From contig DNHS01000056.1 in assembly GCA_003485765.1 (NCBI GenBank), forward strand, positions 8,064-72,063: 64,000 nucleotides of DNA, written 5' to 3'. Source of the stretch: Candidatus Omnitrophota bacterium (lineage in GTDB: Bacteria; Omnitrophota; Gorgyraeia; Gorgyraeales; Gorgyraeaceae). Positions within the stretch are counted from its first letter, which is position 1. Every line of letters starts with the position of its first letter. Shown here in pieces: positions 3,760 through 61,700 of this stretch. Made by a program: the position numbers and the translations under genes. The notes under the pieces are model-generated. The model did not search any database. It was not told the origin of the DNA and saw nothing but the letters and a program-made list of their open reading frames with translations.

Positions 3760-3760
3760 A

Positions 3761-4519: not shown

Positions 4520-5343
4520 TATTTTTCTCCGTTACGGCTAATTGCATCGGCAACCATAACAACCTGCTTCATTTCTTTAACGTCATGCACCCTTACTATA
4601 TCTGCGCCGTTTTTGATTGCTATAGCTACTGACGCTGCTGTGCCGAATTGCCTTTTATCAGATTTAGCTCCCGTGAGTTTTCCTATAAAAGACTTTCTCG
4701 AAGTTCCGATGAGTACAGGCAGCTTAAATTCTTTAAATTCAGAGAGCCTGTTTAAAATCTGAAGATTATGCTCTAGTGTTTTTCCAAATCCAATTCCAGG
4801 ATCTATTATTATATTTTCTTTTTTTATGCCCCTTATTATTGATTTTTCAATAATAATTTTTAGCTTCTCTTTAATTTCCTGAACCACATTCCCATAATTC
4901 GGGCTATGTTGCATTGTTTGTGGAGTGCCTTTTATATGCATCAGCACAACCTTTGCATTAAATCCCTTAGCCACATCTATAATTTCAGGATCCGACTCCA
5001 AACCTGTTATATCGTTTACTATTGATGCCCCGTTTTCTAACGCAAGCCTGGCAACCTCTGACTTGGCTGTATCTATTGAAATAGGAACGCTTATTCTTTT
5101 TGACAATCTTTTGATAATAGGTATTGTCCTTTTTATCTCTTCTTCAGTTGTAACAGGCTCTGCGCCTGGCCTGGTAGATTCGCCTCCTATGTCAATTATA
5201 TCAGCCCCGTCTTCAACCATCCCTTCTGCTATACTGACTGCTCTATCTACATCTTGATATATGCCGTCTCCGCTAAAAGAATCAGGCGTGACATTCAGTA
5301 TCCCCATTATATAAGTACGGGAACCAAATTTAAAATCTGTCAT
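4519..5343 (-). CDS. folP: Dihydropteroate synthase
   Basis: 274 aa. GILNVTPDSFSGDG...DIIDIGGESTRPG... pterin-binding motifs. Confidence 0.9.
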   Translation of the reverse strand: MTDFKFGSRTYIMGILNVTPDSFSGDGIYQDVDRAVSIAEGMVEDGADIIDIGGESTRPGAEPVTTEEEIKRTIPIIKRLSKRISVPISIDTAKSEVARLALENGASIVNDITGLESDPEIIDVAKGFNAKVVLMHIKGTPQTMQHSPNYGNVVQEIKEKLKIIIEKSIIRGIKKENIIIDPGIGFGKTLEHNLQILNRLSEFKEFKLPVLIGTSRKSFIGKLTGAKSDKRQFGTAASVAIAIKNGADIVRVHDVKEMKQVVMVADAISRNGEK

Positions 5344-7181: not shown

Positions 7182-7229
7182 ACATCTCCTAAATTAGATA
7201 CATATATTACCACAACTTATTTGAATAAA

Positions 7230-46125: not shown

Positions 46126-47022
46126 TTAGATTATACTATGCCTTTTTATCCTGGTCAAGAAAAAATTTCCAATAATATAACAATACATCTTGATCTCGTA
46201 TAATAATATAAACGGTAAATTTATTAAAAAACCAGCTATTGAATCATTTTTTTTCATGCATTTATATCTATTCCTTATATATTTTTTCTTTAATTCATCT
46301 GATATGCCTCTAAAGATGTCATTGCGAGGCCGTAGGCCAAAACAATCTTTATTTTCAATAACAGCCGTCGCGCCTCTCTCATGATACGCTGTTGCCATAG
46401 GATTATAATACGCCTTCCATCCCTTTTTCTGCGCCCTCCAGCATAAATCCAAGTCTTCATAGTATATCTCAAAGGTTTCATCAAAATACCCGTTTTTATC
46501 TTTTATATCGTCTAACATAACTTTTTTCATAAGCATGCACGAGCCGCTTACGCCAAAAACATATTCTGGTTTCTCGTGCTGACCTTTATCTAGTTTCCCA
46601 TACCCTCTCTCTAATGGCTTTCTGTTTCTGGCTACAAATAATCCCGTAGAATCTATTGTCTTTTTATCCGTCCTGAAAATCTTCCCGCTTACCATGCCTA
46701 TTCTTTTATCTAAGTTAAAAGAACTTAACGCCTCTTTTAAATAATCCTTATCCAGCACGCAATCGCTGTTTAAGCACAGTATAAAATCCCCCTTCGCCTC
46801 TTTTATGCCTTGATTGTTTGCCTTGCAAAAAAACAAGTTTTCTGTATTTTGCAATAATTTAACTTCAGGATACATGGCATTAACCATCCCACTGCTAGCG
46901 TCTAAAGAACTATTATCTACTACTATTACTTCTTTATCGCCAAAACTCTGCGTCATCACAGAATCTATGCAGCCTTTCAACAAATCTTTTCTATTATAAT
47001 TTACTATTATTACTGATATCAT
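46126..47022 (-). CDS. Glycosyltransferase family 2 (last gene of the RiPP-like operon; candidate peptide glycosyltransferase)
   Basis: 298 aa. ISVIIVNYNRKDLL...VVDNSS..., DxD-type motif (LNSDCV). Packed against the B2-like gene. Confidence 0.7.
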   Translation of the reverse strand: MISVIIVNYNRKDLLKGCIDSVMTQSFGDKEVIVVDNSSLDASSGMVNAMYPEVKLLQNTENLFFCKANNQGIKEAKGDFILCLNSDCVLDKDYLKEALSSFNLDKRIGMVSGKIFRTDKKTIDSTGLFVARNRKPLERGYGKLDKGQHEKPEYVFGVSGSCMLMKKVMLDDIKDKNGYFDETFEIYYEDLDLCWRAQKKGWKAYYNPMATAYHERGATAVIENKDCFGLRPRNDIFRGISDELKKKYIRNRYKCMKKNDSIAGFLINLPFILLYEIKMYCYIIGNFFLTRIKRHSII

Positions 47023-47027
47023 AATTT

Positions 47028-47447
47028 TTAAATAATTATATTACGAGGAGGAAAAATAAAACATACCTTAAAATCTTCGTTCATCTGAGGCTGAAGCTGC
47101 GCAAGATATGGTTTATCATCTAACGTAAGCCAGGCATGGCCATATATCTTTTCACTGTCGCCTTTTACGCCTATATTAATCCTGACTTCGATGCCTTTTT
47201 CCCTCAAAAATTTATAAAGAATCAAAGATCTTTTAAGACAGGTCCCTCGCCTGCTAAAAAATGGCGCTCGCAGCTTAAAAAATAAATCAAGATATTTTGT
47301 TATCTTTGATATATTCCATTCTCTTAATTTAGGAGGCCTGCAAGGCGTCCATGATTTAAGGATTTCAGGAAGAGGTTTTATATGTATTATGACTGGCAGA
47401 ATAAAAAATAGATAAGAAACTCTTGCAAAAAGAAAAATATCTTTCAT
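47028..47447 (-). CDS. Transglutaminase-like cysteine protease, lasso-peptide B2 / McjB C-terminal-domain family (candidate leader peptidase)
   Basis: Putative Cys/His/Asp triad within CLKRSLILYKFLREKGIEVRINIGV...GHAWLTLDD. Start chosen at MKDIF (47447), forming an ATGA overlap with the GT4 stop. Confidence 0.6.
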   Translation of the reverse strand: MKDIFLFARVSYLFFILPVIIHIKPLPEILKSWTPCRPPKLREWNISKITKYLDLFFKLRAPFFSRRGTCLKRSLILYKFLREKGIEVRINIGVKGDSEKIYGHAWLTLDDKPYLAQLQPQMNEDFKVCFIFPPRNIII

Positions 47448-48685
47448 GGCGATCTGCCTTCTGACTTGAGCGAATGCTCTAATAAAAGCGCCTTGCAAGC
47501 CATGACCCACTGCTGGATGCTTTCATCAAAATCCTCTGTCTTTTCAGAAAACTTCCTTGCCTTCTGGCCTATTTTTATCGCTATATCAGGGCTTTTTACG
47601 ATTGACTGCAATCTTCGCGCAAACTCCTTCGTATTATCAGGATCGACTATATAGCTATTTACGCCATCCTGCAGCATGCGGTATACCCCTTTTTCAGCCA
47701 CGCCTTTCCCAATAATAACACACCTGCCGCATGCCATTGCCTCCCTGGCAATCTTAGGATAATGCGTGTTTTTGGGAAGATAAGGCTCTTCAGAGGTTTC
47801 TGGAGAAACAACGCAGGTAGCTGAATTTATAAGAGCCGGCATTCTCCATGGAGCTTGAAAAGGTAGAAACACGGCTTTCCCGCCTAATCCTTTTGAGTGG
47901 ACATACTTCTTCAGCAATAATGATCTTTCATTATTACCCACCACAAATATCAGCCTGAATTTTTCTTTTTTTATGCTACTGCACGCATCTACAAAATTAA
48001 ATGATTTTTTAAGCTTTGAAACTTTGCCTATATATAAAAATGTAGTCATTTTTTCTTTTTTGTTTTTCCTTGAATATAAAGACATATCGAATGGCTTAAC
48101 GTCGGGATGAAACGCTTTTAAGTCTATAGATCTTCGCAATCCAATTATAAATTTATCCCGGCTTATTTTACATCTCCTTAAAATTTTCCGGCTATGTCGC
48201 TGTGTAGTCGATATCTTATCAGCGCCTTTAAATATTTCTATAAAAAGTGATTTTAAAGACGGCGAATCAAATAACCGGGTTATATCGCTTCCAGCGTGAG
48301 CAACCATAAATGGTTTTTTAGTGATATATTTTGCCATCAAACCAGCCACTCCATAAGGCATAAGATATTCTGAATAAATAAGGTCTATGTCATATTTTCT
48401 TATGACCTCAATAGCTATATTGACTAACTTTGGAATATACGGATTGTATGAAGGAATAAAAAACGGCGTATCGCAAGCTGTGCTATGCACCCTTACGTTC
48501 TTTGGTTCAAATTGGCCAGGCTTATTTTCTAAGATTTCCTCGCGATAATCCCCTTCAACCTCCATGCAGTTAGTAACGACGTGCACCTTATGATTTAATT
48601 CGCCCAATCCTCTGGCTAACCAGTATATTCCGGATGATACCCCGCCTTCTATTGGAGGATACTTGCTAATAATGCATATCTTCAT
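47444..48685 (-). CDS. Glycosyltransferase family 1 (GT4-type)
   Basis: 413 aa. N-terminal KICIISKYPPIEGGVS and a C-terminal GT4 E-x7-E-like region. Confidence 0.75.
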   Translation of the reverse strand: MKICIISKYPPIEGGVSSGIYWLARGLGELNHKVHVVTNCMEVEGDYREEILENKPGQFEPKNVRVHSTACDTPFFIPSYNPYIPKLVNIAIEVIRKYDIDLIYSEYLMPYGVAGLMAKYITKKPFMVAHAGSDITRLFDSPSLKSLFIEIFKGADKISTTQRHSRKILRRCKISRDKFIIGLRRSIDLKAFHPDVKPFDMSLYSRKNKKEKMTTFLYIGKVSKLKKSFNFVDACSSIKKEKFRLIFVVGNNERSLLLKKYVHSKGLGGKAVFLPFQAPWRMPALINSATCVVSPETSEEPYLPKNTHYPKIAREAMACGRCVIIGKGVAEKGVYRMLQDGVNSYIVDPDNTKEFARRLQSIVKSPDIAIKIGQKARKFSEKTEDFDESIQQWVMACKALLLEHSLKSEGRSP

Positions 48686-49670
48686 ATTTATGTTTTATCA
48701 ACCTCTTTAAAATCAAAGATAAATTAGCAGGAGACTTTATTATATCTTTTCCGCCAAGAAGCAAATAAGAGCGGCATTGCTTAGCCAGCTTTTTCAAAAT
48801 CTCCATAGCTTCAACATGATGATCTCTAACCGGCTCAAGCGATGAGAACATAAGATTTTCAACTATCTTTATCATCGCTTCATTCGAAGAAAGAGGCATG
48901 AGTTTACTTTTCTTTTTATGCGTTATCGTAGGAAATACAATAAAATTCGGAGCAGAAGCTTTTTTATAACAAGCTTTACGCCTTGCGCATACCCCTGTCC
49001 CTTTTTCGTGATCCCTGCGCAGCATTCTGGTTGGAAACGGATAAACTTTCACCTTGGAATTTGAGCGGCATAAAAACGATATATCATCTCCGCGGCAAAT
49101 AAAACCAGCCTTAGTAAGATTTATAGAAATAGTGGTTTTTCCGTATCCGCTATCGCCCGGAAATAATATACTAACATCGCCCTTTGTCAAATAAGCTGCA
49201 TGTAAGGCGAAAAAACCTCTGATTCTAAAAAAATACATCAACATAATGCGGATAGAATTTCTAAAACTCCTTGGTTTAACCTGGCCTGTAGTAAACAACA
49301 AAATTTTATTTTGATGGTAAAGCCCTGCCATGGGCGAAATTTCGCCATAGTTTCCAAGATGCCTGAGATATCTTACATCTTTGATATCTTTAAAATACTG
49401 AGGCCCTTTAAAATCTTTAGAAACGCCGGGCTGCCAATCTGTTTCGGCCGGCATATCTAAAGGAATCTGAGAAAGGTCCTTGACTGAAATAACTACCATG
49501 GTAACATCAGGTTGCTTTTTTTTAACAATGTCTTTGACAAGATACATTTTGTCAATAGCTCTATAAAAAGAGCTGTTATCTGTCATTATCCTGACAGATA
49601 GACCTCCGATCAGACATGTTTCTGTGAACCTATAGCATTTATTAAAATATGGTGTAAAATCAATTTTCAT
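48666..49670 (-). CDS. HPr-kinase-related (HprK C-domain-like) P-loop kinase, candidate precursor-peptide kinase
   Basis: 334 aa. LHAAYLTKGDVSILFPGDSGYGKTTISINL...GDDISFL resembles the HprK Walker-A region. Such kinases accompany PqqD/B2 genes in lasso-peptide loci. Confidence 0.55.
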   Translation of the reverse strand: MKIDFTPYFNKCYRFTETCLIGGLSVRIMTDNSSFYRAIDKMYLVKDIVKKKQPDVTMVVISVKDLSQIPLDMPAETDWQPGVSKDFKGPQYFKDIKDVRYLRHLGNYGEISPMAGLYHQNKILLFTTGQVKPRSFRNSIRIMLMYFFRIRGFFALHAAYLTKGDVSILFPGDSGYGKTTISINLTKAGFICRGDDISFLCRSNSKVKVYPFPTRMLRRDHEKGTGVCARRKACYKKASAPNFIVFPTITHKKKSKLMPLSSNEAMIKIVENLMFSSLEPVRDHHVEAMEILKKLAKQCRSYLLLGGKDIIKSPANLSLILKRLIKHKYEDMHY

Positions 49671-50817
49671 TTGTAAAAGATGGGCTAAAAGCTGTACTTA
49701 TATGCAGGTTTTTCTTTTCCGGCCATCTCCTAAAAGCTGTTTGAAGAGGAAGCTTTTTAAAAACTCGCCAACATTGCGGGTCTGGCGCGGATAATTGATT
49801 GAAGTATGCATGGCTTATGCACAGCGCTCCTCCATGACAGAATTTAAAATTGCGGCATTTCTGGCACAAAGAGTGCGCATTATTCAAATTTCTCAACTGC
49901 CATAATATATCTGAAGAAAAATATACTTCTAGCAGGCTCTTTTGCAGGACATTTCCTACTTTTATAGGAAGCCGCCTGCATGCTAGAACATCGCCATTAG
50001 GAAACAAAGACAATGTCCTGCCTTCGACCACTCCGCAGCACACTTTCCTATGAGCCATGTCTCCTGTTAAAGCGCTGTTAAATATGCCGTCCTCGCATCC
50101 ATTGGCAATATGAAGCTTGCTATGTTTCGCCCTTAATTCAATGCGCATTTTTCTTTTCCAATGATAAATTTTTCTTAATTCTTCCGGGCTTAATAAGTTA
50201 AACTTGTTTTCTTTGCCCTTTCCGATAGGGACAAACCTCCTTATGCCAACCTTTCCAACTCCTAGCTTTTCGCATAGCTGGACAAGCGCAGGCACATCAG
50301 CCATATTTTTCCTTGTCAGCGTAAAAGAAACAGCGGTTCGCATGCCTGTGTTTACCAATAACTTGGCTTTCTCAATTACTTTATCAAAGCTGCCTTTTTC
50401 GCGTATATTGTCATTATTTTCCTGCATGCCTTCAAGGCTCAACTGCACCCTTTTAACTCCCAAAGATTTCAACTTTAAGGCATTTTTCTCGTTAATAAGA
50501 GAGCTGTTGGTCAAAATGCCTACGGTAAATCTGCCCTTATTATATTTATTTACAAATTTCAATAACCGGAAAAAATCTTTTCTGATAAATGGTTCTCCGC
50601 CGGCAAAGTTAAGATAAGAATGGCCCTTTGGCGAGTTTAAAGCTTTAAGCAAATCCAGATACTGGAAAAAGATATCGCATAATTTAGCGAATGGCAGCTC
50701 TTTCATGTTTTCTTTTTCCCTATAACAATGCTTGCAGCTCCAATTACACCTCTCAGTTATATGCCACTGAAGGGTAAAGGCGCGAAAAAAATCAAAATAA
50801 TGAGGTATGGTTTCCAT
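49660..50817 (-). CDS. Radical SAM enzyme with C-terminal SPASM domain (RiPP maturase candidate)
   Basis: 385 aa. CNWSCKHC (CxxxCxxC) near the N-terminus. C-terminal Cys cluster (CCGVVEG...C...CQKCRNFKFCHGGALC) typical of SPASM auxiliary Fe-S domains. Confidence 0.8.
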   Translation of the reverse strand: METIPHYFDFFRAFTLQWHITERCNWSCKHCYREKENMKELPFAKLCDIFFQYLDLLKALNSPKGHSYLNFAGGEPFIRKDFFRLLKFVNKYNKGRFTVGILTNSSLINEKNALKLKSLGVKRVQLSLEGMQENNDNIREKGSFDKVIEKAKLLVNTGMRTAVSFTLTRKNMADVPALVQLCEKLGVGKVGIRRFVPIGKGKENKFNLLSPEELRKIYHWKRKMRIELRAKHSKLHIANGCEDGIFNSALTGDMAHRKVCCGVVEGRTLSLFPNGDVLACRRLPIKVGNVLQKSLLEVYFSSDILWQLRNLNNAHSLCQKCRNFKFCHGGALCISHAYFNQLSAPDPQCWRVFKKLPLQTAFRRWPEKKNLHISTAFSPSFTNEN

Positions 50818-50825
50818 ACTATGTA

Positions 50826-51107
50826 TTAAGCTGTAATTTCTACCATCTTCTCTTTTATAAGTTTTTTTATCTGGCGATTTACGCTAGCGAATGCTTTATC
50901 TTTATCAACGTCATATTCATCCACTATCGCATCGGTTATTTCTCCAATAGTCTTTTTGCCATCCAAAAGCTGCCAAATCCTTACTCCCGCCTCATTAAGC
51001 CTATAAAAATACTTTGTTTCAAAATTTAAAAGAACAGCTTCTTTGTTATCCAGTTCAGTATAGATTATGGACGGCTTAACTCTTAAGCGCTGTTTGGGGT
51101 TTATCAT
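50826..51107 (-). CDS. PqqD-family protein (RiPP recognition element), copy 1
   Basis: 93 aa. Pattern L.N.T...Y.LN..G..IW.LLDG..T..EI matches PqqD/RRE. Confidence 0.7.
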   Translation of the reverse strand: MINPKQRLRVKPSIIYTELDNKEAVLLNFETKYFYRLNEAGVRIWQLLDGKKTIGEITDAIVDEYDVDKDKAFASVNRQIKKLIKEKMVEITA

Positions 51108-51372
51108 ATAAACTCAATACGCCTGTTTTTGATAACTTATTTATAAAGCTGCTGGCATCTTTTTTCGCTGTCTCATAATTAACGTCGAATTCTTTAAGTA
51201 CGGCGTCTATAATTTTATTTACCTTTGTTTTGCCATCCGCCAAATTCCATATAAAGCTTCCCATGGGATTAAGAAAGTAAAAAGCATTGTCCTTTAGATT
51301 TAAAATAACTGTTTCTCCGTCTATTATTCTACAGTGAAGCTTTTTACCAGGTAATACGTATTTGTCAAGCAC
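51076..51372 (-). CDS. PqqD-family protein (RiPP recognition element), copy 2
   Basis: 98 aa. IDGETVILNLKDNAFYFLNPMGSFIWNLADGKTKVNKII PqqD pattern. GTG start with AGGGAGG RBS. Overlaps copy 1 by 32 nt. Confidence 0.7.
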   Translation of the reverse strand: MLDKYVLPGKKLHCRIIDGETVILNLKDNAFYFLNPMGSFIWNLADGKTKVNKIIDAVLKEFDVNYETAKKDASSFINKLSKTGVLSLYDKPQTALKS

Positions 51373-51515
51373 AATGCCTCCCTTTACCTTATTGAGTATA
51401 AAATACTGCTAAGATTAAGAAATATCAAGAAAATAATTAAGTTTTCAGGTAGGATTTATTAGGAATGATGGCGTTTCTTTATCTTTTCTATAAACATCCT
51501 TTGGGTTTAATATAA

Positions 51516-51659
51516 CTAAGCGCAGGAGGTACAACTGGCGCAGCTGGAACAACTCGTGCCTACCCGATTATTCAGTTTTCCTTCTTTTTTCAACTGCGGT
51601 TCTTTAAAAAACTTTTTGTATTCTGGTTTTTGATATTGTTTTTTATTATTCTTGTCCAT
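51516..51659 (-). CDS. Candidate RiPP precursor peptide (47 aa): MDKNNKKQYQKPEYKKFFKEPQLKKEGKLNNRVGTSCSSCASCTSCA
   Basis: Not in the ORF track (<60 aa). Manual translation of the minus strand. AAGGAGGA RBS 5 nt upstream of the ATG, own promoter, Lys-rich leader, C-terminal C-x-x-C-x-x-C-x-x-C Ser/Thr-rich core. First gene of the operon. Confidence 0.6.
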   Translation of the reverse strand: MDKNNKKQYQKPEYKKFFKEPQLKKEGKLNNRVGTSCSSCASCTSCA

Positions 51660-51685
51660 ATACATCCTCCTTATCTTATATTAAT

Positions 51686-51714
51686 AGTATAAAAGATATA
51701 TTAAAATTGGTCAA
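51686..51714 (-). promoter_or_regulatory. sigma70-like promoter (TTGACC-17nt-TATACT) for the precursor operon
   Basis: Minus-strand TTGACC at 51714-51709 and TATACT at 51691-51686, about 27 nt upstream of the precursor ATG. Confidence 0.45.
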
Positions 51715-51901
51715 GTATTATCATTTTAAAAGTTTTCGAAAAAATTATAAAATTAATATTTTTCTAGTAGCTATGACCGTGATTTAAAAACTTAGAAAGC
51801 ATTTACCTTTATGATATAAATTATAGCATATAATATAACAATTGCAAGGTCATTTTTTTCTTGATTTTCAAATCTATATATAATAAGCTTATTATATAAT
51901 C

Positions 51902-53059
51902 ATGCATAACGCATTATCCAAATCCAGTCTTTTATTGAATAAAAATTCTCCTCTTCCAAGTCTAAATAACGCTGAATTAGAGATAGTCCTTAAAGAATCT
52001 TTATACCATAGCCTTACAAATCTTATCTATTTAACTATAAAAACATCGGATAGATACAAAGAATTAATTCATCATCCTGCATTTTCTCGTCTAAAAAATA
52101 GCTATTTTATGACAGTTAAGGATAATATGCTGAAACAGAAAGAGTTTATTGATATTAGCAATGCTTTTGAAACCGCTGACATACTTATGGTTCCTATCAA
52201 AGGCATGGCTTTATTATTTGATGTTTTCCAAGATAATTTAAGCCGGCCTATGGCTGATATAGATATTTTAATAAAGAAAAATGACCTGGAAAAAGCTAAA
52301 CAGCTCATGCAAGGTCTTGGCTATAAAGCAGCTCTCGGAAATTTTTCAGAAAGATATTATACTGATTATTACCATCATCTGCCTTTTTTTAAAGCATCTA
52401 TGGTAGAACTGCATTGGGATCTTGCAGTTCCAAGGCCGAATAAAATTATTTTACCTGAGTTGTGGGATAGATTGCAAAAGATTGAGCATAATAACGCCTT
52501 TTTAAACATCCTCTCTCCAGAAGACACGATATTCTCGCTTGCGCTTCATTTAAGAAGATTTAACACACCATTCTCATTAAAGCCCATATACGATATTTAT
52601 AGAATAATGGAAAAATACGATAAAGAAATAGATTGGGAGTATCTATCAAAATACAGCGGATTAAACAGGCTAAACTCTATTATCTATTACTCCCTGGTTT
52701 CTGTTAAAACAATATTTGAATATCCTATATCTGAAAAAGAACTGGGGATGTTTTACCCTGGTATATTAAGAGCGTCTTTATTAAAATTATTTATAAATAG
52801 GGTCAAGAATAGAGGCGTTACGAGACTTATAAAATCTGCTTCTTTTAGAAAATACGCCTATATATTTTTACGTTTTTTATTATATGACCGCTTGTGGGAT
52901 CTTATAAAATTCATAATACTTATACCTGAGGAAGAATTCAGCCGTTTCTATTCAATCGAATTTCCCTCAAAAGTATCATCCGCTATTTACAGTCTTAGAT
53001 TTTTGGCCATGCCTTTTCTAGCCTTATTAGACAGGTTTTCTAAAAAATCATCTATATAG
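51902..53059 (+). CDS. Nucleotidyltransferase-family protein (PF14907-like uncharacterised NTase)
   Basis: 385 aa. Pol-beta-like NTase core hinted by ...GMALLFDVF...RPMADIDILI. Divergent from the precursor operon. This family co-occurs with HprK-like kinases in lasso-type loci. Confidence 0.5.
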   Translation: MHNALSKSSLLLNKNSPLPSLNNAELEIVLKESLYHSLTNLIYLTIKTSDRYKELIHHPAFSRLKNSYFMTVKDNMLKQKEFIDISNAFETADILMVPIKGMALLFDVFQDNLSRPMADIDILIKKNDLEKAKQLMQGLGYKAALGNFSERYYTDYYHHLPFFKASMVELHWDLAVPRPNKIILPELWDRLQKIEHNNAFLNILSPEDTIFSLALHLRRFNTPFSLKPIYDIYRIMEKYDKEIDWEYLSKYSGLNRLNSIIYYSLVSVKTIFEYPISEKELGMFYPGILRASLLKLFINRVKNRGVTRLIKSASFRKYAYIFLRFLLYDRLWDLIKFIILIPEEEFSRFYSIEFPSKVSSAIYSLRFLAMPFLALLDRFSKKSSI

Positions 53060-54183
53060 TTTATAAAATTGCTCCAGTTATATTTTATTATATCTTTCCT
53101 GCCAAGGCTGCCCATTTGCATTGTCAATTCCACGTCCATAGCTATTTTACACATATAAGATGCGTATTCTCTTGCATCAGGTGAACTTAAAAATCCTGTT
53201 ATGCCATTTTTTATAATTTCCTTTGGCCCGCCGTTATTAATAGCAATAACAGGCTTAGAAAAAGAAAGCCCCTCCAGCACAGTAAGGCCAAAGTCTTCAT
53301 TCAGGGTAGTTGAGAGAACTGCGCGGCAATCTTTGTAAAGGTTCAAAATATCTTTTTCCGAAGGGTTTATCGTAATGATTATATTTTTATTCGCAGCAGC
53401 CATCTTTTTTAATTTTTCATAATAACTATTATTTGTCTTATACAGCTCTCCTGCTATTATAAGTTTAAAATTACGCAATCCTTCATGTTCCATCTGCGCT
53501 ATATTAAACGCCTCTATTGATAATTCTATATTCTTCCACCATTTTATACGCGTTGGGTGGAAGAAATAATTCTCATATCCAGTATTTCCCGAAAAATACA
53601 TTGTGTCAACGCCAAGGTTCAAAACCTTTAATTTATAATCAGGCAGAAGGTTATTTTTCAGAATCCTATCCCTGACTTCCTTGCTGATACAAAAACACAA
53701 GTCATATAATTCAAACGCCTTTTTATCTATTACCTTGAATAAAAAATAAAACAGAAAATAAAATGGGGCCTTATGTAAATTTTTTAAAACATAGTCTTTT
53801 CTCAAAACATCGTCATATATAATCTTCAATGGGGTGTAACAAATACTAATTTTAGCTATATCCTTATTTTTGAAATTTATCAGGCCTCCCAGGCCTTCGT
53901 TATGCACGCATAAAGCATCAAACCCTTCGAGAGGAAGTTTCTGATTAAAGATAACCCACGCTGACCTTAAGGTATTAAAATAACTTCTCTCTACAGAGAT
54001 CTTTTTAAATTCCGTTATCCTGGATTTAAAATCCTCAAATTCTGGGTAGGTGGTATCTTTTTCATAAAGATTGGTAAACACATGCCAATCATGTCTGGAG
54101 CGCTTCAAGACTTCAAGTATCGTACGCTCAACACCACTTCTTAAATGGATATAAGGATAATATAATGCGATTTTTAAAGACAT
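52987..54183 (-). CDS. Glycosyltransferase family 1 (GT4-type)
   Basis: 398 aa, GT4 fold (N-terminal KIALYYPYIHLRSGVER, C-terminal nucleotide-sugar-binding half). Confidence 0.7.
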   Translation of the reverse strand: MSLKIALYYPYIHLRSGVERTILEVLKRSRHDWHVFTNLYEKDTTYPEFEDFKSRITEFKKISVERSYFNTLRSAWVIFNQKLPLEGFDALCVHNEGLGGLINFKNKDIAKISICYTPLKIIYDDVLRKDYVLKNLHKAPFYFLFYFLFKVIDKKAFELYDLCFCISKEVRDRILKNNLLPDYKLKVLNLGVDTMYFSGNTGYENYFFHPTRIKWWKNIELSIEAFNIAQMEHEGLRNFKLIIAGELYKTNNSYYEKLKKMAAANKNIIITINPSEKDILNLYKDCRAVLSTTLNEDFGLTVLEGLSFSKPVIAINNGGPKEIIKNGITGFLSSPDAREYASYMCKIAMDVELTMQMGSLGRKDIIKYNWSNFINYIDDFLENLSNKARKGMAKNLRL

Positions 54184-55478
54184 TTTTTAGCGCTCAGAAG
54201 AGATAATATCCCGGTATAACTCCAAAAAATATAACTGGGAACTATCCAGTAAAGCGTATCATAGGTTAAAAATGTGCACATTATACCTGCAAGGCCTGAC
54301 AAAAAACCTATCAACAATAACCTATTATCTCTGGTTAAATTAGCCTTAAGCTTTAAGCATGAACGCTTCAAAATAGAAAAAATAAAAATAAGAAAACCTC
54401 CCAACCCTACTATCCCTGCCTCTGCTAAAATTGTTATATACATGCAATCCGCTATCTTTTGGTCATATTCTGTTATATTAGCTATAGCCGGTAAATAATG
54501 GTCAAATAAAACCCTGTAATGTCCAAAACCTATCCCAAAAAAAAGATGGTCTTTGAGTATGGCTTCAAGCGCTGAAAAACGTATAATCTTTCTTAAATAG
54601 ACCTCCCAGCTTGATAGGTATCTAAGGCTGTAACGCCAAAATGCAAAATTATTGTAGCCTAACAGCACAGAACTAACCCATACTAAAAATATACAAAATA
54701 ATATAAGCCACAGTATAAAGACTATCTTCTTCCGCCTAATAAAAAAAGAGGTCATAATGAATACGCTTGTTAATAAGCCAATAAGCGCGCCCCTGGAAAA
54801 TACCAGAATAATACAAACAGCTATCGTAACTGCATAAATAAAAGCTGCTATTTTAAAAAATCTTTTCTCCTCTTTTAAGAACAATACATATGCAAGCGGA
54901 AAGATCGCTAAAAGGTATGTCCCGAATGATATTGGATGCATATGTATAGACATCATCCTAATGCCCTTATACGTCTCATAGTATAAACTTGTTAAATATT
55001 TTTCATATATAATATTGTTTCTTGTAGAGAATTCTATTATTCCATAAAGACATAAAACAAATGCCATAAAACATACAACTCTTAATATATATTTAGTATT
55101 TTGTATTTTAAATGTGATTTTTGCAAAAAAGTATAAAAATGGTATAGGAAATATATAGCTCCAGAAATGCCTATACATAGTAACCGACTCCACTGCATTC
55201 ACAATACCTGCCATTAAAGCCGCTAAAAATATCCAGAAAGGTATTTCTTCCCTGGAAAATATAAGCTTATACAATTGTCTGTCAATAAAAAGCAAAACTG
55301 AAAGAAAAATAATTAACACAACAAAAAACCAAAAGCGACAAGATTCATTAACAATCGGAGCGAAAAACGATATCCATAAAAACAAAGCTATTACTCCTGT
55401 TAACTTAAAATTATTTATTACTTTATCCATAATATATTGCGGCTGTAAGAATGCTATGATGAATCGCTTTTTAAGCAT
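54174..55478 (-). CDS. O-antigen ligase / Wzy-like polytopic membrane protein
   Basis: 434 aa with more than 10 predicted TM helices and a periplasmic loop. Sits in a glycosyltransferase cluster. Confidence 0.55.
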   Translation of the reverse strand: MLKKRFIIAFLQPQYIMDKVINNFKLTGVIALFLWISFFAPIVNESCRFWFFVVLIIFLSVLLFIDRQLYKLIFSREEIPFWIFLAALMAGIVNAVESVTMYRHFWSYIFPIPFLYFFAKITFKIQNTKYILRVVCFMAFVLCLYGIIEFSTRNNIIYEKYLTSLYYETYKGIRMMSIHMHPISFGTYLLAIFPLAYVLFLKEEKRFFKIAAFIYAVTIAVCIILVFSRGALIGLLTSVFIMTSFFIRRKKIVFILWLILFCIFLVWVSSVLLGYNNFAFWRYSLRYLSSWEVYLRKIIRFSALEAILKDHLFFGIGFGHYRVLFDHYLPAIANITEYDQKIADCMYITILAEAGIVGLGGFLIFIFSILKRSCLKLKANLTRDNRLLLIGFLSGLAGIMCTFLTYDTLYWIVPSYIFWSYTGILSLLSAKKCL

Positions 55479-55488: not shown

Positions 55489-56466
55489 CTAGCTATCCTT
55501 ATGCTTTATTTCTTCTACTAACGACATCTTCTTTGTAAATATTGCAGGTAAATATAATGAAGCGCCTAAAAATATTCCCAACAACTCCGCCATTCTTATG
55601 ATCGGGGAATATAAAATCCAGCTCAATTTATAAGATAAGTTTCTTTTTAAATGCGATATATATATCATATCTTTTATCGACTTAAAAATAAAAATCAAAG
55701 GAAGCTTTAATAATGCTGAAAAAGTCCATCGCTTAAGCAACAAATGATTTAATCTTGCATCATCAAAATATCTCTTCATTGTTCCAATAAAAGACTTGTG
55801 TAAATCATGAGAATGAATAACCTCTGAACTAGACTCAAATATGATCTTATACCCTTTTTCTAACATTCGTTGTGACCATTCTAAGTCTTCGCCAAATTCA
55901 ATATCTGCGAATGGATTTTTCAACAGCAGATCTTTTTTAATTGCGCAACTAATTGTATGAAATGATATAAATCTCCTTTTTTCTTCCACGTCTTTATTTT
56001 TATATTCCGCAAATGTCTTAATATGCTTTATTCTCTCGCTAAAAATACGATCATTGCGTAAGATGTCCAGTACGCCCAATGGGTTGCAATCTTGTCTAGG
56101 ACATAATCTGCTGCACACTCCGGCAACATCTTCGTATATTAAAAATGGCCTGATTAAATTATTTAACCAATGCTTATCTTTTGGCGTTGCGTCTCCATTT
56201 AAAAATACCAAATATTCACCCTTGCTTAAACACATGCCTAAATTTCGAGTTTTGCCATGCCCGAATTCTTCTGGAGAAATTTGAATCAAAACAACAGGAT
56301 ATTTTCTTATTATTTCTAAAACTCTACTGTTAGAACCAGAATCGATTATTATCACTTCAAAACCACAGCTTATCTCCTGGCAAAAAACAGCCTTAAGCGT
56401 TTCTTCAATCATATTTTCCTGGTTTTTAGTTAAAATTACTATAGAGATTTTTATGATATTATTCAT
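55489..56466 (-). CDS. Glycosyltransferase family 2
   Basis: 325 aa. ISIVILTKNQE...IIIDSGSNS... and DxD-type motif (LNGDAT). Confidence 0.75.
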   Translation of the reverse strand: MNNIIKISIVILTKNQENMIEETLKAVFCQEISCGFEVIIIDSGSNSRVLEIIRKYPVVLIQISPEEFGHGKTRNLGMCLSKGEYLVFLNGDATPKDKHWLNNLIRPFLIYEDVAGVCSRLCPRQDCNPLGVLDILRNDRIFSERIKHIKTFAEYKNKDVEEKRRFISFHTISCAIKKDLLLKNPFADIEFGEDLEWSQRMLEKGYKIIFESSSEVIHSHDLHKSFIGTMKRYFDDARLNHLLLKRWTFSALLKLPLIFIFKSIKDMIYISHLKRNLSYKLSWILYSPIIRMAELLGIFLGASLYLPAIFTKKMSLVEEIKHKDS

Positions 56467-57527
56467 GCTATGCGCGAGGTAGGCATAAGCTCTTTTACTG
56501 ACTCGACTACCTTTTCCATAGATATCTTATCCATACAGGTTTGTTTCTTATCGCATTTATTCTTATAACATGGGGCGCACTTTGCTTCTGTGATTATTTT
56601 AGAGCCTAGATTATATAAATCTATTTCCTGAGCACAGGTAGGGCCAAAAAGCGCAACAACCGGTTTTTTAAGCGCTATTGCCATGTGCATTGCAAGCGTA
56701 TCGGCTGCTATAATCAGCCCGCAATTATTAATCAATGCAGTGAATTCCTTAAGGCTATTGTCGCATCCGCTATCAATTACTTTACCATCCATTGCTTTTC
56801 TAATATATTTATGGATATCCTTTTCAAAAGGCCCTCCAAGTAATATTATTTTCACATTTAATTCTTTACACAATAACTCTATTAGACTAACTAACCTATT
56901 TTTTCCTAAGTTCTTATTTGCAAAAACCCTGCCTGCCCCTGTATTGATGCCAATAACAATATCGTCTTTATCTAACCCGTTCTTCTTGAAAAAACTGTCT
57001 GCAAAATCAATATGTTTTTTATCTAACTTTAATTCATAAGGATTGTTTTGATAGTTAAGTTTTGCTGTTTCAAATATTAGCTCCTGATAGGTCTTTTTAT
57101 TTTTAAAAAATTTTAACTCATCATCTATGCCTAACAGATAAGAATAACTCGCTTCCTTATTCAAAGGGCATAACTTGCCTTTTTTATCCAAGCCAAAGCC
57201 ATATTTTTCAGAAGCCCTGACAGACATAGCCAGAGAAGCTGCTTCAATAGCCTTATCTAAAGATATAACAATATCGAACTCTTCTCCGTTTAGCAGTAAA
57301 ACGCTCTTTTTGCTATAAACCAAAATCCGGTTTATGCTATCATTGCCTTCTAAAAGTTCCAGCGCTAACTCTTCGACAATCCATGTTATATGACTATATG
57401 GATATTTTTTCTTTAATCCAGATAAAAGCGTAGTTGTCCTTAAAACATCTCCTGCTGAAGCTAATTTGATAATTAAAATCTTTTTACTATTACAAGAAAT
57501 TGACATGTTCTCTAGGCTGTTTAACAT
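56463..57527 (-). CDS. Glycosyltransferase family 9 (LPS heptosyltransferase-like)
   Basis: 354 aa. KILIIKLASAGDVLRTTTLL... is the GT9 N-terminus. C-terminal GPTCAQEI... region. Confidence 0.75.
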   Translation of the reverse strand: MLNSLENMSISCNSKKILIIKLASAGDVLRTTTLLSGLKKKYPYSHITWIVEELALELLEGNDSINRILVYSKKSVLLLNGEEFDIVISLDKAIEAASLAMSVRASEKYGFGLDKKGKLCPLNKEASYSYLLGIDDELKFFKNKKTYQELIFETAKLNYQNNPYELKLDKKHIDFADSFFKKNGLDKDDIVIGINTGAGRVFANKNLGKNRLVSLIELLCKELNVKIILLGGPFEKDIHKYIRKAMDGKVIDSGCDNSLKEFTALINNCGLIIAADTLAMHMAIALKKPVVALFGPTCAQEIDLYNLGSKIITEAKCAPCYKNKCDKKQTCMDKISMEKVVESVKELMPTSRIA

Positions 57528-58563
57528 TCCAAAGTATCTGATTAAATGTATTATCTCTGCACAATGGTATGCAATTGCGAAAATCTATCCTATTTATAGC
57601 TTTAACCCTTTCTTCGGAATTCCAGATATACTTAAAACTTTTCTTTTTAAGGTCCCCTATGCAATATTTATTATAACCCCTAGTGTGGCAGCATATATAC
57701 ATCTTTCCCGTAGCGGATATCACAGTGGCAAACTGCTGGCCGTAACATTTCTTATAATACCTTCCAAACTTAGAGTCATGTGCCATCTCGTATTTATGCT
57801 GGGAATACAAAACCTTGAATTTGTTGCCTGAATATTTAAGGCAATTTACTATCTCATCCTGGACATCTGCCCAATAATACCTGAACTTTCCTCCGTTATG
57901 GATCTGCATAGGCCTGAATTGCAGATAATCAACACCTAATCTATCTGCTAGCAGCGTTGCCTTCATCATATCCGGTTTTGTATAATCACTAGTTAAGAAA
58001 CCTATTCCTACATTGCATAAACTTTTTATTTTTTTCTTTATTTTTACCAATAAAGCTATATTTTTTATGATTTTATTAAACTCGTTTCCATCAAGGCCAT
58101 GCGTCAGTTTAAATACTCCGGGCGATCCTGCATCCAAAGATACCCTCAGCCATGTGCAGTTATTTAAAAGAACGCTCGATGACTTATGGTCTAATAATGA
58201 CCCGTTCGTTATGAAACCCACGTCAAGGCCCTTTGAGCGGGCAAGCTTAACCATGTCCAGCGTGCAGGGATTGCATAAGGGCTCTCCGCCTCCTGTAAAT
58301 ATTAATCCTTTTATTTTGTTTTTTGCAAGCTGCAAGATAATTTTTTTAGCAAGTCTGGGGGTAAGAAAACTTCTATCATTGATTCTGAAATAATTTACAA
58401 CGCACTCCTGGCATCTATGATTACATATATTTGTCATATCCAATTCTACTGTGATTGGAGGCGTATTCTTTCCATTCAACCAATCATTTACCCTATCTAA
58501 GTGCTTCAATATCTTGTCGGAGCTAAACTGCCTCACATCAATCTGTCTTAAATCCATGCCCAC
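57490..58563 (-). CDS. Radical SAM protein with C-terminal Cys-rich (SPASM/twitch-like) region, embedded in the glycan locus
   Basis: 357 aa. CNHRCQEC (CxxxCxxC), GGGEP motif, C-terminal CC...C...C..C cysteines. Confidence 0.7.
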   Translation of the reverse strand: MGMDLRQIDVRQFSSDKILKHLDRVNDWLNGKNTPPITVELDMTNICNHRCQECVVNYFRINDRSFLTPRLAKKIILQLAKNKIKGLIFTGGGEPLCNPCTLDMVKLARSKGLDVGFITNGSLLDHKSSSVLLNNCTWLRVSLDAGSPGVFKLTHGLDGNEFNKIIKNIALLVKIKKKIKSLCNVGIGFLTSDYTKPDMMKATLLADRLGVDYLQFRPMQIHNGGKFRYYWADVQDEIVNCLKYSGNKFKVLYSQHKYEMAHDSKFGRYYKKCYGQQFATVISATGKMYICCHTRGYNKYCIGDLKKKSFKYIWNSEERVKAINRIDFRNCIPLCRDNTFNQILWNVKQPREHVNFL

Positions 58564-58775: not shown

Positions 58776-61700
58776 TTACCTTCTAAAGGTTAAATTCTCA
58801 GATTGTTCTGAAGCTAAGACCTCTATAGCAGCTTTATCTCCGTGCAAAGCCAGGGCCTTACCAATAATAGGGAATACAGTGCAAACTAGCCAGCATGAAC
58901 ACTTACCAGAATCTATAAAATCTCTTACCTCACAAGCCTTGTTAGAATCCCATATATAGTCCATCTTATTATCTCTTATATTTCCTATTGTTTTTTCTTT
59001 TAAAAGCGGGCAGAAAAACATATTTCCATAAGGATCGAGCATTACAAATTTAAATCCGGCATTGCAATCATAAGCAAATCTGCTTTTTGTCTTTTGGAAA
59101 TCTACAAGATGGGACCAGTAATATATTTTAGTGAAAAGATTTATTTTACCCCTCACCGTAGACATATTATTATAAAAATCCTCCGGGCTAGAAACCTTTC
59201 TGATAATGCGTTCCAGTATTTGCCCGATATGGCCCTCTATTCTTTCAAGATCTTTATTGCTCCATTTAAATACCTCGCTTTGCCTGGACTCTTTTGGCAC
59301 CCCAAACTGGGCAAAAAAATCAATGCCATTTTTATCAGCAAATTCCCAGCAAGGCACCAGCTGATCCGTATTAAAAGGCGTCAAAACAAAAGTAAGACTA
59401 AAACGCACTTCCGGAAGCTCTTTCTTAAAGAATTCTAATGTTTTCACAAAACCGCTGAATCCGCCATCAACGCCCCTTATCTTGTCGTAAGCATCTCCAA
59501 GCCCATCAAGAGAGCTTCCTATCCATATAGCATTTGTTTTGATCTTTTTAAGAATCTGCTTCATTTTCGAAACTATGACTTCTGTATTTATGCCATTTGT
59601 AAGAATTCCTAAAGATGCTTGCGGCAGCGTATCTTTTATCGCAAAACATATATCTACAAAATCAGGCCTAAGAAAGGGTTCTCCTCCGGACAGGACAACG
59701 GTCTTTATGCCCTTTAACGCATTTGAACCTGATAAAAGTTTCTTGATATCATCTAGAGAAATTTCATCTTTTACGCTTTTGCCTGTTCTTTTATGAATGT
59801 CCCAGATATCGCATGTAATGCACTTGCTGTTGCATAAATGAGTAAGTTCGACATGCAATTCTTCCGGTTTCATATTAATATCCTTAGAATATTCTTTATT
59901 CAAATAATCAAGAGACAGTTTTATAATATCGTCTGTTTTTTTAACAATATCTTTCATGATGCTATCTGAAGACGGTAAACGCTTATCCGCGCCAACAGGC
60001 TTGATAACAGAACCTTCGGGCCTTATTGCAATTCTATCTATTTCCATAACATCAGCGTAAATGTTGTCTAATTTTTGGACTACCTTATTCCAGTCATATT
60101 TTTCCTCTACAAGAAGTCTTGCTTGCCTGGCTATTCTTTTATACAATGCGTCATTATTGAAAAGCTCTGTTACATATCTTGCAAAATCTTTGGGTTTGTC
60201 AGATATTAAAATATTAAAGCCGTTTTCCGCATCTATCCCGCAAGAGCCTCGCGTTGTAGATACAACAGGTGTCCCTGTAGCCATAGCTTCCAATATCTTG
60301 CCCTTTATCCCTGCGCCTACCCTGGAAGCGCATACGAACAGAGAGGCATTATGAAGATATGGCTTAACGTCAGGCACATCACCTATGACTTCTACGCCTT
60401 TGATGCTTGAAAGCCTCAGCACATTTTCAGTAGGTCCTGACCCTACAAGCTTAACAGTTGCTTCCGGGATTAATTTTTTTATCAAAGGAAAGATTTTACG
60501 GCAGAAATATACAGCTGCTTCCTCATTTGGATAATGAGGGTAGTGTCCGACAAATATCAGAGATTTATCTCTACCTGTCTTATCTTTAAATTCAAAATGC
60601 TCGATATCTACTCCTGTAGGCACATAAGAAAAGTCTGAATTAGGAGAAAATACCCTGACTACGCGCATATCTTCTTTTGATAAAACAATTATTTTATCGA
60701 GATTTTTATAAAAAGAGTTGTGGCTATGTACGATTTTCATGTAATCTATTATACCCGGTAAAACATATCTCGTATTTTTTTTATAATAAGACTTATGCGG
60801 CGACAGTATGCTGATATCGTGCTCGGTATATACGATGGGAATATGCTTGACAAATCTGGTAAGGTACAAAAGCTCGTTTGATTCTATGTGGGCAAGATCT
60901 ATGGAAAGCCTGCCTTGAATTTCATTTAATTTCTCTATTAAGAAACTGCTGAACGAATGCCTGTAGCGGTTTGGAAATAAAAATTCATTAACCTTAGTTT
61001 GCCTATCTATTAAATGTATTTCTTTGAAAATATCTTTCATGGAATTAGACTTAGCGTATTCTGAATCTTTTTCATGATGCGCGAGAGACAGGAGCACTAT
61101 ATCGTAGTTTTTAGACAGGCGCTTGTATAAGTTATACATCCTTATCTTCCCTCCGCTATTAAGCGGATATGGTATAAAAGGCGTTATTAAAAGAACTGTC
61201 TTCTTATCAGAATGTACAAAGTTATTGCGCATAAAATTCCTGTAGTAAAGCAAGCTTCTGTCTAAAACCCTCTTATCTTTTACTTCAGCATATCTGAATT
61301 CCTTAAACCTATTAACTAAAGCAGGTATTATATAATTTAATGCCCAGACATACCCTATTAAAAATGTTAACCTTGTGCTATGGCGCCCTTTTAATAAAAA
61401 TTTTGGCAAATTATTAAAGTGGCTTAAGACCATGTTATTATCCCTTAGATTCTTCCACATAAACAACAGTTCATTCTTTATTTCTTTATGCCTTACATAA
61501 TTCAGCGTGGCCGCGCCTTTATGATACATTATGCTGTTCGGTTCATATAAAACTTTCAATCCTCTTTTTTGCGCCCTGTATGAAACATCTATATCCTCCC
61601 AGCAATTAGGCCTGTATATGTCGTCAAAACCCCCCATCCATAAAAAATCTTTCTTGCGGAAACACATTGCGCCTCCTACAGCGAAAACTGTAGGGGAAGT

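Follow-up and report, generated by a model that had tools for sequence, protein, structure and literature searches.

What does a gene cluster make that combines parts of lasso peptide clusters with a radical S-adenosylmethionine (rSAM) enzyme and two glycosyltransferases (GTs)? The question is raised by positions 46126 to 53059 of a 64,000 nt stretch of Candidatus Omnitrophota contig DNHS01000056.1 (assembly GCA_003485765.1), the whole of which is referred to here as the window. A first reading of this DNA (the original prediction) had placed there eight minus-strand genes, from 51659 down to 46126, and a divergent nucleotidyltransferase (NTase) gene of the PF14907 family, and all nine open reading frames (ORFs) were recovered at these coordinates. 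Comparison with related loci makes it likely that the cluster specifies a ribosomally produced and post-translationally modified peptide (RiPP), that RiPP recognition elements (RREs) guide an rSAM enzyme to it, that its leader is processed in the manner of lasso peptides or of linear polyphosphorylated peptides (LPPs), that phosphorylation and glycosylation tailor the product, and that the family is common in Omnitrophota. The window has matches in contig MHEZ01000007.1 of assembly GCA_001803975.1 and in several Rifle groundwater assemblies, and close homologues of the window proteins are annotated as Candidatus Omnitrophota.

A precursor with a conserved leader and a variable core

The first gene of the cluster (51516..51659, minus strand), found by ORF scan, encodes a protein of 47 aa, MDKNNKKQYQKPEYKKFFKEPQLKKEGKLNNRVG / TSCSSCASCTSCA, with a Lys-rich leader that carries the motif YQKP..KK and a core of the pattern CxxCxxCxxC. 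The core, TSCSSCASCTSCA, contains no Asp and no Glu, and the precursor ends in ...SCA. A strong Shine-Dalgarno (SD) sequence, AAGGAGG, lies 6 nt 5' of the ATG at 51659 (an alternative ATG is at 51665), and independent gene callers have annotated the precursor in public assemblies as a gene of 47 or 49 aa.

Related loci were collected with the rSAM protein as the anchor (44–89% identity), giving 12 in all: the window and the sister loci L089, L085, L097, L086, L098, L087, L088, L005, L099, L100 and L090. A small ORF of the same architecture is found beside the rSAM or kinase gene in 11 of the 12, and the copy in L088 is more divergent. In these homologues a Lys-rich N-terminus is followed by Y-x-K-P-x-x-K-K, usually by (E/D)PxMKK..KFN, and then by the core, so that the leader consensus reads K-rich..YxKPxxKKxFxxPxxKK..KF. 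An alignment of nine sequences has Y9, P12, K15 and K16 invariant, together with the C-terminal Cys, and over the several comparisons these residues hold in 9–13 loci. The cores consist of Cys and small residues, and both their length and their sequence are hypervariable: the Cys number from 1 to 9 or more and are often arranged as (CxxC)n; examples from sister loci are SCSSCASCTSCA, SCGCSNCGCSACW, ACSSCFSCAA, SCGACVGCGSCACGSCGCAGCS, GGGGCSCY and GVSSCY. Asp and Glu are absent from all homologous cores except that of L085, which has one Asp near the C-terminus, and nearly all precursors have a Ser or Thr at the predicted leader-core junction.

The closest sister locus (L089, 89% identity) is almost identical to the window in the DNA of the promoter, the SD sequence and the leader, whereas the core has diverged, with an in-frame insertion of 9 nt that retains the CxxC spacing. 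A conserved leader joined to a diverged core is what is classically seen in RiPPs. Discrete RREs of the lasso and PqqD types recognise the motif YxxP (PMC12710340; PMC13381572). Judged by its conservation and context, the 47-aa ORF is a true RiPP precursor. Ten of the precursors were searched against the NCBIfam models and matched no peptide family at E ≤ 10, and the 11 database members of the precursor family are all called "hypothetical protein" or are unnamed.

Ring closure of the lasso type can be set aside. A lasso cyclase (Asn_synthase, PF00733) is encoded neither in the operon and its flanks nor in any window ORF of at least 400 aa, and none appears in the Pfam lists of the 11 sister loci, which bears out its absence from the original prediction. 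As the cores lack an Asp or Glu acceptor, no lasso macrolactam would be possible and, by its encoded parts, this is not a lasso peptide cluster.

Gene content of related loci

Components were counted by jackhmmer annotation of the 12 loci, together with precomputed Pfam lists. The rSAM/SPASM enzyme, an HprK-like kinase, at least one PqqD-type RRE and the precursor are each present in 12 of 12, and on these counts they are the invariant core of the system. Other parts are less regular: the lasso-type leader peptidase B2 occurs in six loci, a cluster-specific GT of the GT4 family in about seven and a PF14907 NTase in six. Searches with hidden Markov models (HMMs) upheld the PqqD and B2 assignments of the original prediction and, at the level of the family, its HprK-like assignment, the window's own kinase sequence being sub-threshold. 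Its description of a hybrid made from lasso-type parts fits the window in that B2 is encoded there; B2 is found in only 6/12 loci, however, and the core set is a different one. The small Cys-rich ORF, on which it had proposed to test a pure glycan pathway as the alternative, is present in the orthologous loci and has a conserved leader.

More distant matches help to delimit the family. Genome contigs were scanned with the rSAM alignment (generic CX3CX2C) and, among the matches listed, only L005 was a true relative; the module was absent from the other 79 listed loci (23–37% identity), except that L048 has a ScmC and an NTase. A scan of metagenome contigs with the single rSAM protein gave eight loci, six of which were analysed: L089 and L090 are close relatives, and L091–L094 are kinase-less. 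The latter are on Joint Genome Institute (JGI) metagenome contigs (e.g., L094, 9962-11401) and encode, in this order, an rSAM enzyme of 36–38% identity, a weak PqqD, a precursor and a protein of about 1000 aa. Their precursor, MKKKRVYEKPRITKEVKMQFPLKMIEAKTKQVVCKQCSSCHSCR, has a YEKP leader and the core CKQCSSCHSCR. Since these four loci have rSAM, PqqD and precursor genes without a kinase gene, they suggest that the rSAM/Cys-repeat module is the older core.

Several sister loci carry additional genes near the precursor. L097 has a second small ORF (1852-2326, minus strand; MKKKKIRAAKKGNKTPWKEPDFEIYSLLDKNLYLRGVFCNCYDPGDCSSDPAGS) with WxxP in place of YxxP, adjoining its own PqqD gene and a gene for a B12-binding rSAM protein, and it recalls the Y-versus-W leader discrimination of LPP and paeninodin RREs (PMC13381572). 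Immediately upstream of the precursor in L086 (7270-7716), L097 (8324-8701) and L099 (8390-8782) is a gene for a signal-peptide protein of 125–148 aa, which has no Pfam or NCBIfam match, shares the motif '...LRRLKDGKLGYSIV.LK...' and is absent from the window. In L098, three sulfatase genes (2975-7257) stand in tandem directly upstream of the precursor gene, and a Phosphodiest gene (PF01663) directly follows the GT4 gene in L086 (12518-14053) and L100 (9080-10573). The sulfatase and Phosphodiest proteins, of the alkaline-phosphatase superfamily, may act on a phospho-linked modification.

The rSAM/SPASM enzyme

The rSAM gene (49660..50817, minus strand) specifies a protein with matches to Radical_SAM (72 bits) and SPASM (28 bits). 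It starts directly at the CX3CX2C motif (C24/C28/C31) with no fused RRE, and its alignment to CteB begins at CteB residue 99. Eight further conserved cysteines, the full SPASM set (C241, C261, C280, C318, C321, C327, C333 and C349), are predicted to hold auxiliary Fe-S clusters. The best sequence match in the PDB is CteB (5wgg), and the fold of an AlphaFold2 (AF2) model with a mean predicted local distance difference test (pLDDT) score of 89.7 matches SkfB, SuiB, CteB, anSME and PqqE about equally. Among NCBIfam models the highest score is to rSAM_ACGX (180.6 bits, cut-off 400), and there are matches to SbtM (144, cut-off 350), GeoRSP (144, cut-off 400) and MftC (131.5, cut-off 265). By sequence and model, which do not single out one reaction, the protein is a peptide-modifying SPASM enzyme. 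Thioether formation on the core Cys is the default guess by analogy, and SbtM-type Cys heterocyclisation or another reaction is possible. An anSME-like formation of formylglycine was also considered (anSME is a fold neighbour, and L098 has its three sulfatase genes); motif and family scores did not support it.

The best 120 rSAM homologues listed (clusters at 90% identity) are all at least 39% identical to the window protein, and those with a named source are mostly from Omnitrophota. Some homologues are longer, at 537–576 aa (P0026, P0055, P0061, P0082, P0108 and others), and carry at the C-terminus an additional Cys-rich domain, about 190 aa long, with the pattern PRCLFG..C.EC.ELF...C..C..C.YF.RG.C.G.C. 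This domain has no Pfam match and is not the kinase, and an rSAM-kinase fusion, considered for the homologues of 540–576 aa, was rejected for these reasons.

Predicted leader recognition and removal

Two adjacent minus-strand genes, at 51076..51372 and 50826..51107, encode PqqD-type proteins (PF05402, 62.9 and 64.7 bits, respectively). Against the lasso models they score 52 and 49.6 bits (lasso_PqqD_Bac, cut-off 80) and 36–38 bits (lasso_PqqD_Strm, cut-off 70), and so reach neither cut-off. Clustering of 22 PqqD proteins from the loci separates two clades, with one window protein in each. Clade A, which includes the product of 51076..51372, is represented in 10/12 loci and usually adjoins the rSAM gene, whereas clade B, which includes that of 50826..51107, accompanies B2 in five of its six occurrences. 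In L098 a divergent PqqD gene stands immediately upstream of the B2 gene, a split B1-B2 arrangement. From the way in which the clades track rSAM and B2, and from the L098 arrangement, we infer that one RRE (clade A) serves the rSAM enzyme and the other (clade B, B1-like) the B2 peptidase.

The B2 gene of the window (47028..47447, minus strand) encodes 139 aa from its ATG, within an ORF that extends to a GTG at 47510. The protein scores 45 bits against the lasso B2 model NF033537 (cut-off 33) and 45 bits against Transglut_core3 (PF13471), five orthologues likewise pass the NF033537 cut-off (39–48 bits), and the Cys (GTCLKRS) and His (GHAWL) are conserved in 6/6. A PDB sequence search with B2 gave no match. 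A second PqqD is always present in the six loci that have B2.

Four loci without B2 (L099, L088, L100 and L087) carry instead a gene for a signal peptidase I (SpI) of archaeal type, the kind to which LppS, the leader peptidase of the LPP family, belongs (PMC13381572). The genes are at 4529-5469 (minus strand) in L099, 9186-10160 in L088, 11286-12122 in L100 and 13491-14327 in L087. Scores against TIGR02228 were 53.7 and 54.2 bits (cut-off 51.85), with weaker matches to SipW. Weak or faint Pfam Acetyltransf_1 matches in the proteins of L087, L088 and L100 are consistent with a fused GNAT-like domain, and the L099 gene adjoins a PqqD gene. B2 and SpI, in six and four loci, respectively, never occur together and appear mutually exclusive; by Pfam and NCBIfam, the window operon has B2 and no archaeal-type SpI.

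Proposed phosphorylation and the LPP-like alternative

The 334-aa product of 48666..49670 (minus strand) carries the motif LHAA..GDSGYGKTT..DD of a P-loop kinase resembling HprK and ScmC. Its highest scores are 40.5 bits to HprK_rel_A (cut-off 200) and 23.3 bits to ScmC (cut-off 125). The family gives a clearer signal. Across 11 aligned orthologues, little or no variation is seen at His157, in the P-loop GxSGxGK(T/S)T or at Asp195-Asp196; in PsmK, mutation of the predicted metal site that corresponds to this DD pair abolishes activity (PMC6993621). A profile of the family matches the HprK/P structures 1knx (E = 1.4e-7), 1ko7 (7e-7) and 1jb1 (1.6e-5) over about 70 residues, from LH(G/A) through the P-loop to DD. 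A word-indexed homologue search found five proteins only, and family counts were taken from an exhaustive profile search, which returned 2535 representatives at E ≤ 1e-3 and 528 at E ≤ 1e-10, mostly of 320–340 aa. Of 62 relatives sampled, 53 match Hpr_kinase_C, 55 TIGR00679, all 62 HprK_rel_A and 43 ScmC. The orthologous kinases carry precomputed Pfam matches to ScmC (PF27840), which marks them as superfamily relatives. The assignment as an HprK-like kinase is thus supported at the family level.

With a kinase as invariant as the rSAM enzyme (12/12), it might be (poly)phosphorylation of the core Ser or Thr that defines the class, followed by phospho-linked glycosylation by the NTase and GT4, with the rSAM enzyme as a secondary tailoring step. 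This would make the system resemble LPPs and lasso peptides of the paeninodin type, and several features agree with it: the peptidase alternates between lasso B2 and LPP-type archaeal SpI, the YxxP leader, the NTase (a putative counterpart of that of LPPs) and the polysaccharide context are as in LPPs, and the Ser or Thr at the predicted leader-core junction recalls LppK, which polyphosphorylates core Ser3 in a system where leader cleavage depends on phosphorylation (PMC13381572). However, the precursors of L091–L094 (YEKP, CxxCxxCxxC) occur with rSAM and PqqD and no kinase, the NTase is found in 6/12 loci only, and there is neither the extended leader motif of LPPs, nor an MsbA exporter, nor a Bacillota host. 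We regard the LPP-like reading as unlikely, if deserving of attention, and continue to favour an RRE-guided rSAM cluster in which phosphorylation is one of the tailoring steps.

Candidate sugar-transfer enzymes

The GT4 gene (47444..48685, minus strand) has a clear Pfam and NCBIfam family match and shows translational coupling to both the kinase gene and the B2 gene. With orthologues scoring 602 bits (L085), 360 bits (L086 and L005) and 271 bits (L101), its product represents a distinct, well-conserved and cluster-specific subfamily; the neighbouring GT4 at 52987..54183 was not recruited by a jackhmmer search with it. In L101 (9001-13119), from the Patescibacteria metagenome-assembled genome (MAG) GCA_043803385.1, an rSAM gene (44% identity) is coupled to a gene of the same GT4 subfamily. 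This direct coupling argues that GT4 acts on the Cys-rich peptide. L101 has no PqqD, RRE, kinase or peptidase gene. A nearby gene encodes a protein of 105 aa with an N-terminal transmembrane (TM) or signal-like segment and a C-terminal SCSSCNSCGGWGSCGGGGGAGCGG... repeat (SCSSCNSCGG..(GC)n), which may be a leaderless, membrane-anchored substrate.

The GT2 gene (46126..47022, minus strand; PF00535, 95 bits) is the final gene ahead of rpsO. It occupies this position only in the window and L089, has generic NCBIfam matches only, and may belong to the flanking glycan locus rather than to the peptide pathway. Of the two GTs that had been assigned to the pathway, then, GT4 is retained in about 7/12 loci and GT2 may be a glycan gene.

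The divergent NTase gene (NTP_transf_5, PF14907; 51902..53059, plus strand) scores 142.7 bits. The motif RPxxDxDxL is conserved in the window protein and its orthologues, and in six of the 12 loci the gene lies within 10 kb. Pseudomycoidin provides a point of reference: PsmK, of the HprK family, phosphorylates its C-terminal Ser, and PsmN, an uncharacterised NTP transferase, is needed for a hexose on the phosphoserine and is inactive as D134A/D136A (PMC6993621).

Gene order and promoters

Genes of the operon are tightly packed, apart from the first. The two PqqD genes overlap by 32 nt, rSAM and kinase by 11 nt and kinase and GT4 by 20 nt; GT4 and B2 meet in an ATGA overlap if B2 starts at the ATG used by public gene calls, and gaps of 8 nt (PqqD to rSAM) and 5 nt (B2 to GT2) complete the series. 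The sole long spacer, of 143 nt, separates the precursor from the first PqqD gene. The seven genes after this spacer overlap or lie at most 8 nt apart.

The promoter of the original prediction, TTGACC-17-TATACT upstream of the precursor (51714..51686, minus strand), agrees with the consensus at 10/12 positions and is kept in L089 as TTGACT-17-TATACT. It is a consensus match only, of a kind for which this AT-rich stretch shows no enrichment (38 versus 28.5 ± 5.8 in shuffled sequence). A second promoter-like sequence, TTGATA-17-TATTTT (51400..51428, minus strand; 9/12 positions), lies in the precursor-PqqD spacer, in a block of about 60 nt (51400..51460, minus strand) that is nearly identical in L089, where the rest of the spacer has diverged. 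The block may serve as a regulatory site or internal promoter and so allow the precursor to be expressed separately from the enzymes. An attenuator hairpin was also considered, and is unsupported: no stable RNA fold was found in the spacer (z = +1.45). A search of Rfam with 40–64 kb of the window gave no match.

Downstream of the operon, on the same strand, are rpsO and pnp, so that the cluster lies upstream of these genes and not downstream as first described. The GT2 stop is at 46126 and rpsO starts at 46110, 15 nt after it. A near-consensus promoter-like sequence, TTGACC-17-TATAAT (46158..46130, minus strand), is found 20 nt upstream of rpsO and still within GT2, at its 3' end, and rpsO-pnp probably have their own promoter even though they abut the cluster with no predicted terminator between.

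Glycan genes around the cluster

The cluster borders a glycan locus with genes for GT4 (52987..54183), Wzy_C (O-antigen ligase/polymerase-like; 54174..55478), GT2 (55489..56466) and GT9 of the heptosyltransferase family (56463..57527). Inside this locus, beside GT9, is a second stand-alone rSAM/SPASM gene (57490..58563, minus strand), and a similar extra gene recurs in L085, L097, L098, L099 and L100. Further on is a giant GT2-GT2-GT4-rSAM/SPASM fusion (58776..63722, minus strand; the ORF runs on) of more than 1648 aa, which is 1748 aa long in L001. This unusual fusion may be a sign that the organism uses rSAM/SPASM chemistry as part of its glycan or glycopeptide synthesis.

Such surroundings allow for a different role of the peptide, as a primer, anchor or cofactor of glycan machinery and not a free metabolite. 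It could be a phosphoglycosyl-peptide that receives a glycan, built up or attached by GTs, Wzy_C or PMT_2, or a glycosylated, peptide-derived small molecule like mycofactocin, the precedent for which is offset by the weak MftC and MftF matches in the window (131.5 versus 265 and 71 versus 280, both below cut-off). Sister loci, too, are mostly in glycan surroundings (Wzy_C, PMT_2, GT2, GT4 and GT9, with Phosphodiest beside GT4 in L086 and L100), the operon has no exporter gene, translational coupling joins the dedicated and highly conserved GT4 to rSAM or kinase, the Patescibacteria locus L101 included, and of the two further rSAM/SPASM domains in the adjacent glycan locus one is fused to three GT domains. 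LPP and paeninodin clusters also sit in capsule loci (PMC13381572). Co-location with glycan genes is, however, circumstantial, and a hypervariable core is more to be expected of diversifying natural products than of a cofactor or primer that is conserved. A role as primer, anchor or cofactor seems to us quite improbable.

That the small ORF is spurious and lies by chance beside PqqD, rSAM, kinase and GT genes that act on a non-peptide substrate is highly improbable: small Cys-rich ORFs are easily found by chance, promoter-like motifs are not enriched here and two relatives, L101 and L102, show the rSAM clade without an RRE, but the leaders of the ORF family share four invariant residues, its SD sequence is strong, at least 11 loci have it next to the rSAM or kinase gene, and it evolves with a conserved leader and a variable core, carries the YxxP motif bound by PqqD-type RREs and is predicted by independent gene callers.

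A proposed pathway

An RRE-guided rSAM RiPP cluster thus remains the likely reading, and its steps might be ordered as follows. The clade A RRE would bind the YxKP motif of the leader and present the core to the rSAM/SPASM enzyme, which would modify core cysteines, by default with thioether cross-links like those of sactipeptides or ranthipeptides. The kinase would, like PsmK, PadeK and LppK, phosphorylate Ser or Thr in the core, and the NTase and/or GT4 would attach a sugar, either at the phosphate or at a Ser, Thr or Cys. The clade B RRE and B2 would remove the leader, and the product would be a small cross-linked peptide, probably decorated with phosphate and/or sugar. A lanthipeptide-like route, by elimination of phospho-Ser and addition of Cys, was not adopted, as no lyase or cyclase domain is present.

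Several observations weigh on the other side. No product has been observed, and each chemical step is taken from homology. The rSAM protein reaches no curated NCBIfam cut-off, and its fold neighbours catalyse differing reactions, which leaves thioether formation as a default guess only. The window kinase is sub-threshold for all kinase HMMs and has no Pfam match, and its AF2 model, from an alignment of five sequences, is unusable (pLDDT 45). In B2 the third residue of the catalytic triad is not clearly conserved. Gene context shifts at 43–44% rSAM identity, L101 having rSAM and GT4 only and L102 arrays of rSAM genes, so that the rSAM clade is not enough by itself to identify the system. Neither the operon nor its flanks encode an exporter, and there is no ABC exporter in the window from 46 to 64 kb; with glycan biosynthesis genes all around, some of the GTs, notably GT2, may serve glycan synthesis.

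A bolder proposal would join these strands into a new RiPP class of Omnitrophota and the candidate phyla radiation (CPR), in which (CxxC)n peptides are transformed by rSAM chemistry, phospho-glycosylated by kinase, NTase and GT4, and used as primers or anchors for envelope glycans, and in which the exchange of B2 for SpI bridges lasso peptides, LPPs and rSAM RiPPs. We hold this to be distinctly unlikely; if true, the product would be a ribosomally encoded glycan carrier rather than a diffusible antibiotic. More generally, the loci point to a widespread family with a conserved, unnamed precursor family, in which lasso B1/B2, an LPP signal peptidase, an HprK-like kinase and a PF14907 NTase appear recombined with radical-SAM chemistry, and which would extend the LPP finding of 2026 beyond Bacillota. 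They offer a small gene set for asking what HprK-like kinases, PF14907 proteins and coupled GT4 enzymes do to peptides, and they raise the question of why such clusters occur in glycan loci of ultra-small, possibly host-dependent bacteria.

Relation to known systems

Among the papers that could be searched, none described this gene combination and none dealt with SynChlorMet, GeoRSP, ACGX or the HprK-related kinase. RRE-Finder noted about 300 discrete RREs of lasso type in company with rSAM enzymes, and regarded these as non-lasso. The view that the cluster corresponds to no described RiPP class stands insofar as no curated rSAM family cut-off is reached, and needs amending in that close relatives have now been described, among them the LPPs (PMC13381572) and the NCBIfam cassettes.

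Lasso clusters share with the window a B2 peptidase that passes NF033537 and a YxxP leader (YQKP), and differ in having a cyclase, a core Asp or Glu acceptor (position 7-9) and PqqD proteins that satisfy the lasso models. Closer are the paeninodin and pseudomycoidin clusters (Zyubko et al. 2019, PMC6993621), with their split B1 (PqqD) and B2, HprK-family kinase and Y/WxxP leader, and with an uncharacterised nucleotidyltransferase, PsmN in pseudomycoidin; that of the window is of family PF14907. Unlike these, the window adds an rSAM/SPASM enzyme, and a cyclase is missing from it and from the 11 sister loci.

Among rSAM systems, the maturases of sactipeptides and ranthipeptides are similar in that CteB and SkfB are the nearest solved enzymes, the core is Cys-rich and there are two sets of auxiliary-cluster Cys. 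The window enzyme has no fused RRE, however, scores low against PapB (81.6, cut-off 340) and StsB (85.7, cut-off 625), and is equally close in fold to SuiB, anSME and PqqE. Mycofactocin is a precedent for the combination of rSAM/SPASM, PqqD and GT2; in the window, MftC (131.5/265) and MftF (71/280) are matched weakly and the precursor ends in ...SCA, not in Val-Tyr.

The NCBIfam cassettes ACGX (TIGR04340), SynChlorMet ScmC/D/E/F (TIGR04248-51), GeoRSP (TIGR04302/3) and HprK-related kinase A (TIGR04352) join an rSAM/SPASM enzyme, a PqqD chaperone and, in some cases, an HprK-like ScmC to a short Cys-repeat peptide, and their models are the top HMM matches of the window rSAM, PqqD and kinase proteins. 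The scores remain well below the cut-offs for SynChlorMet (ScmC 23.3/125; ScmD 38 and 41/100; ScmE 86/400; ScmF 83/400), and the window operon has a single rSAM/SPASM gene. For ACGX, the rSAM score is 180.6/400 and the window repeat is CxxC, while 'ACGX' implies a period of four residues. We know of no B2, SpI, GT4 or NTase among the families of the ACGX, SynChlorMet and GeoRSP cassettes and, to our knowledge, no product of these systems or of those with HprK-related kinase A has been characterised.

LPPs (Popov et al., Nat Commun 2026; PMC13381572) were reported to be restricted to Bacillota, whereas the host here is an Omnitrophota bacterium. Instead of SpI the window has B2 and a second RRE, and the invariant rSAM/SPASM enzyme and the dedicated GT4 are additions to the LPP set; the window core is short and rich in Cys, while the LPP core is linear and of 45 aa; an MsbA-like exporter is absent, and the leader lacks the extended consensus YxxPxVLxHQxIxFETxxS. 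The two are nevertheless alike in their discrete RRE, YxxP-type leader, HprK-like kinase (at family level), uncharacterised NTP transferase (the PF14907 protein being a putative counterpart of LppN), lack of a cyclase and placement in polysaccharide loci, and in four sister loci of the window family the likeness extends to an archaeal-type SpI.

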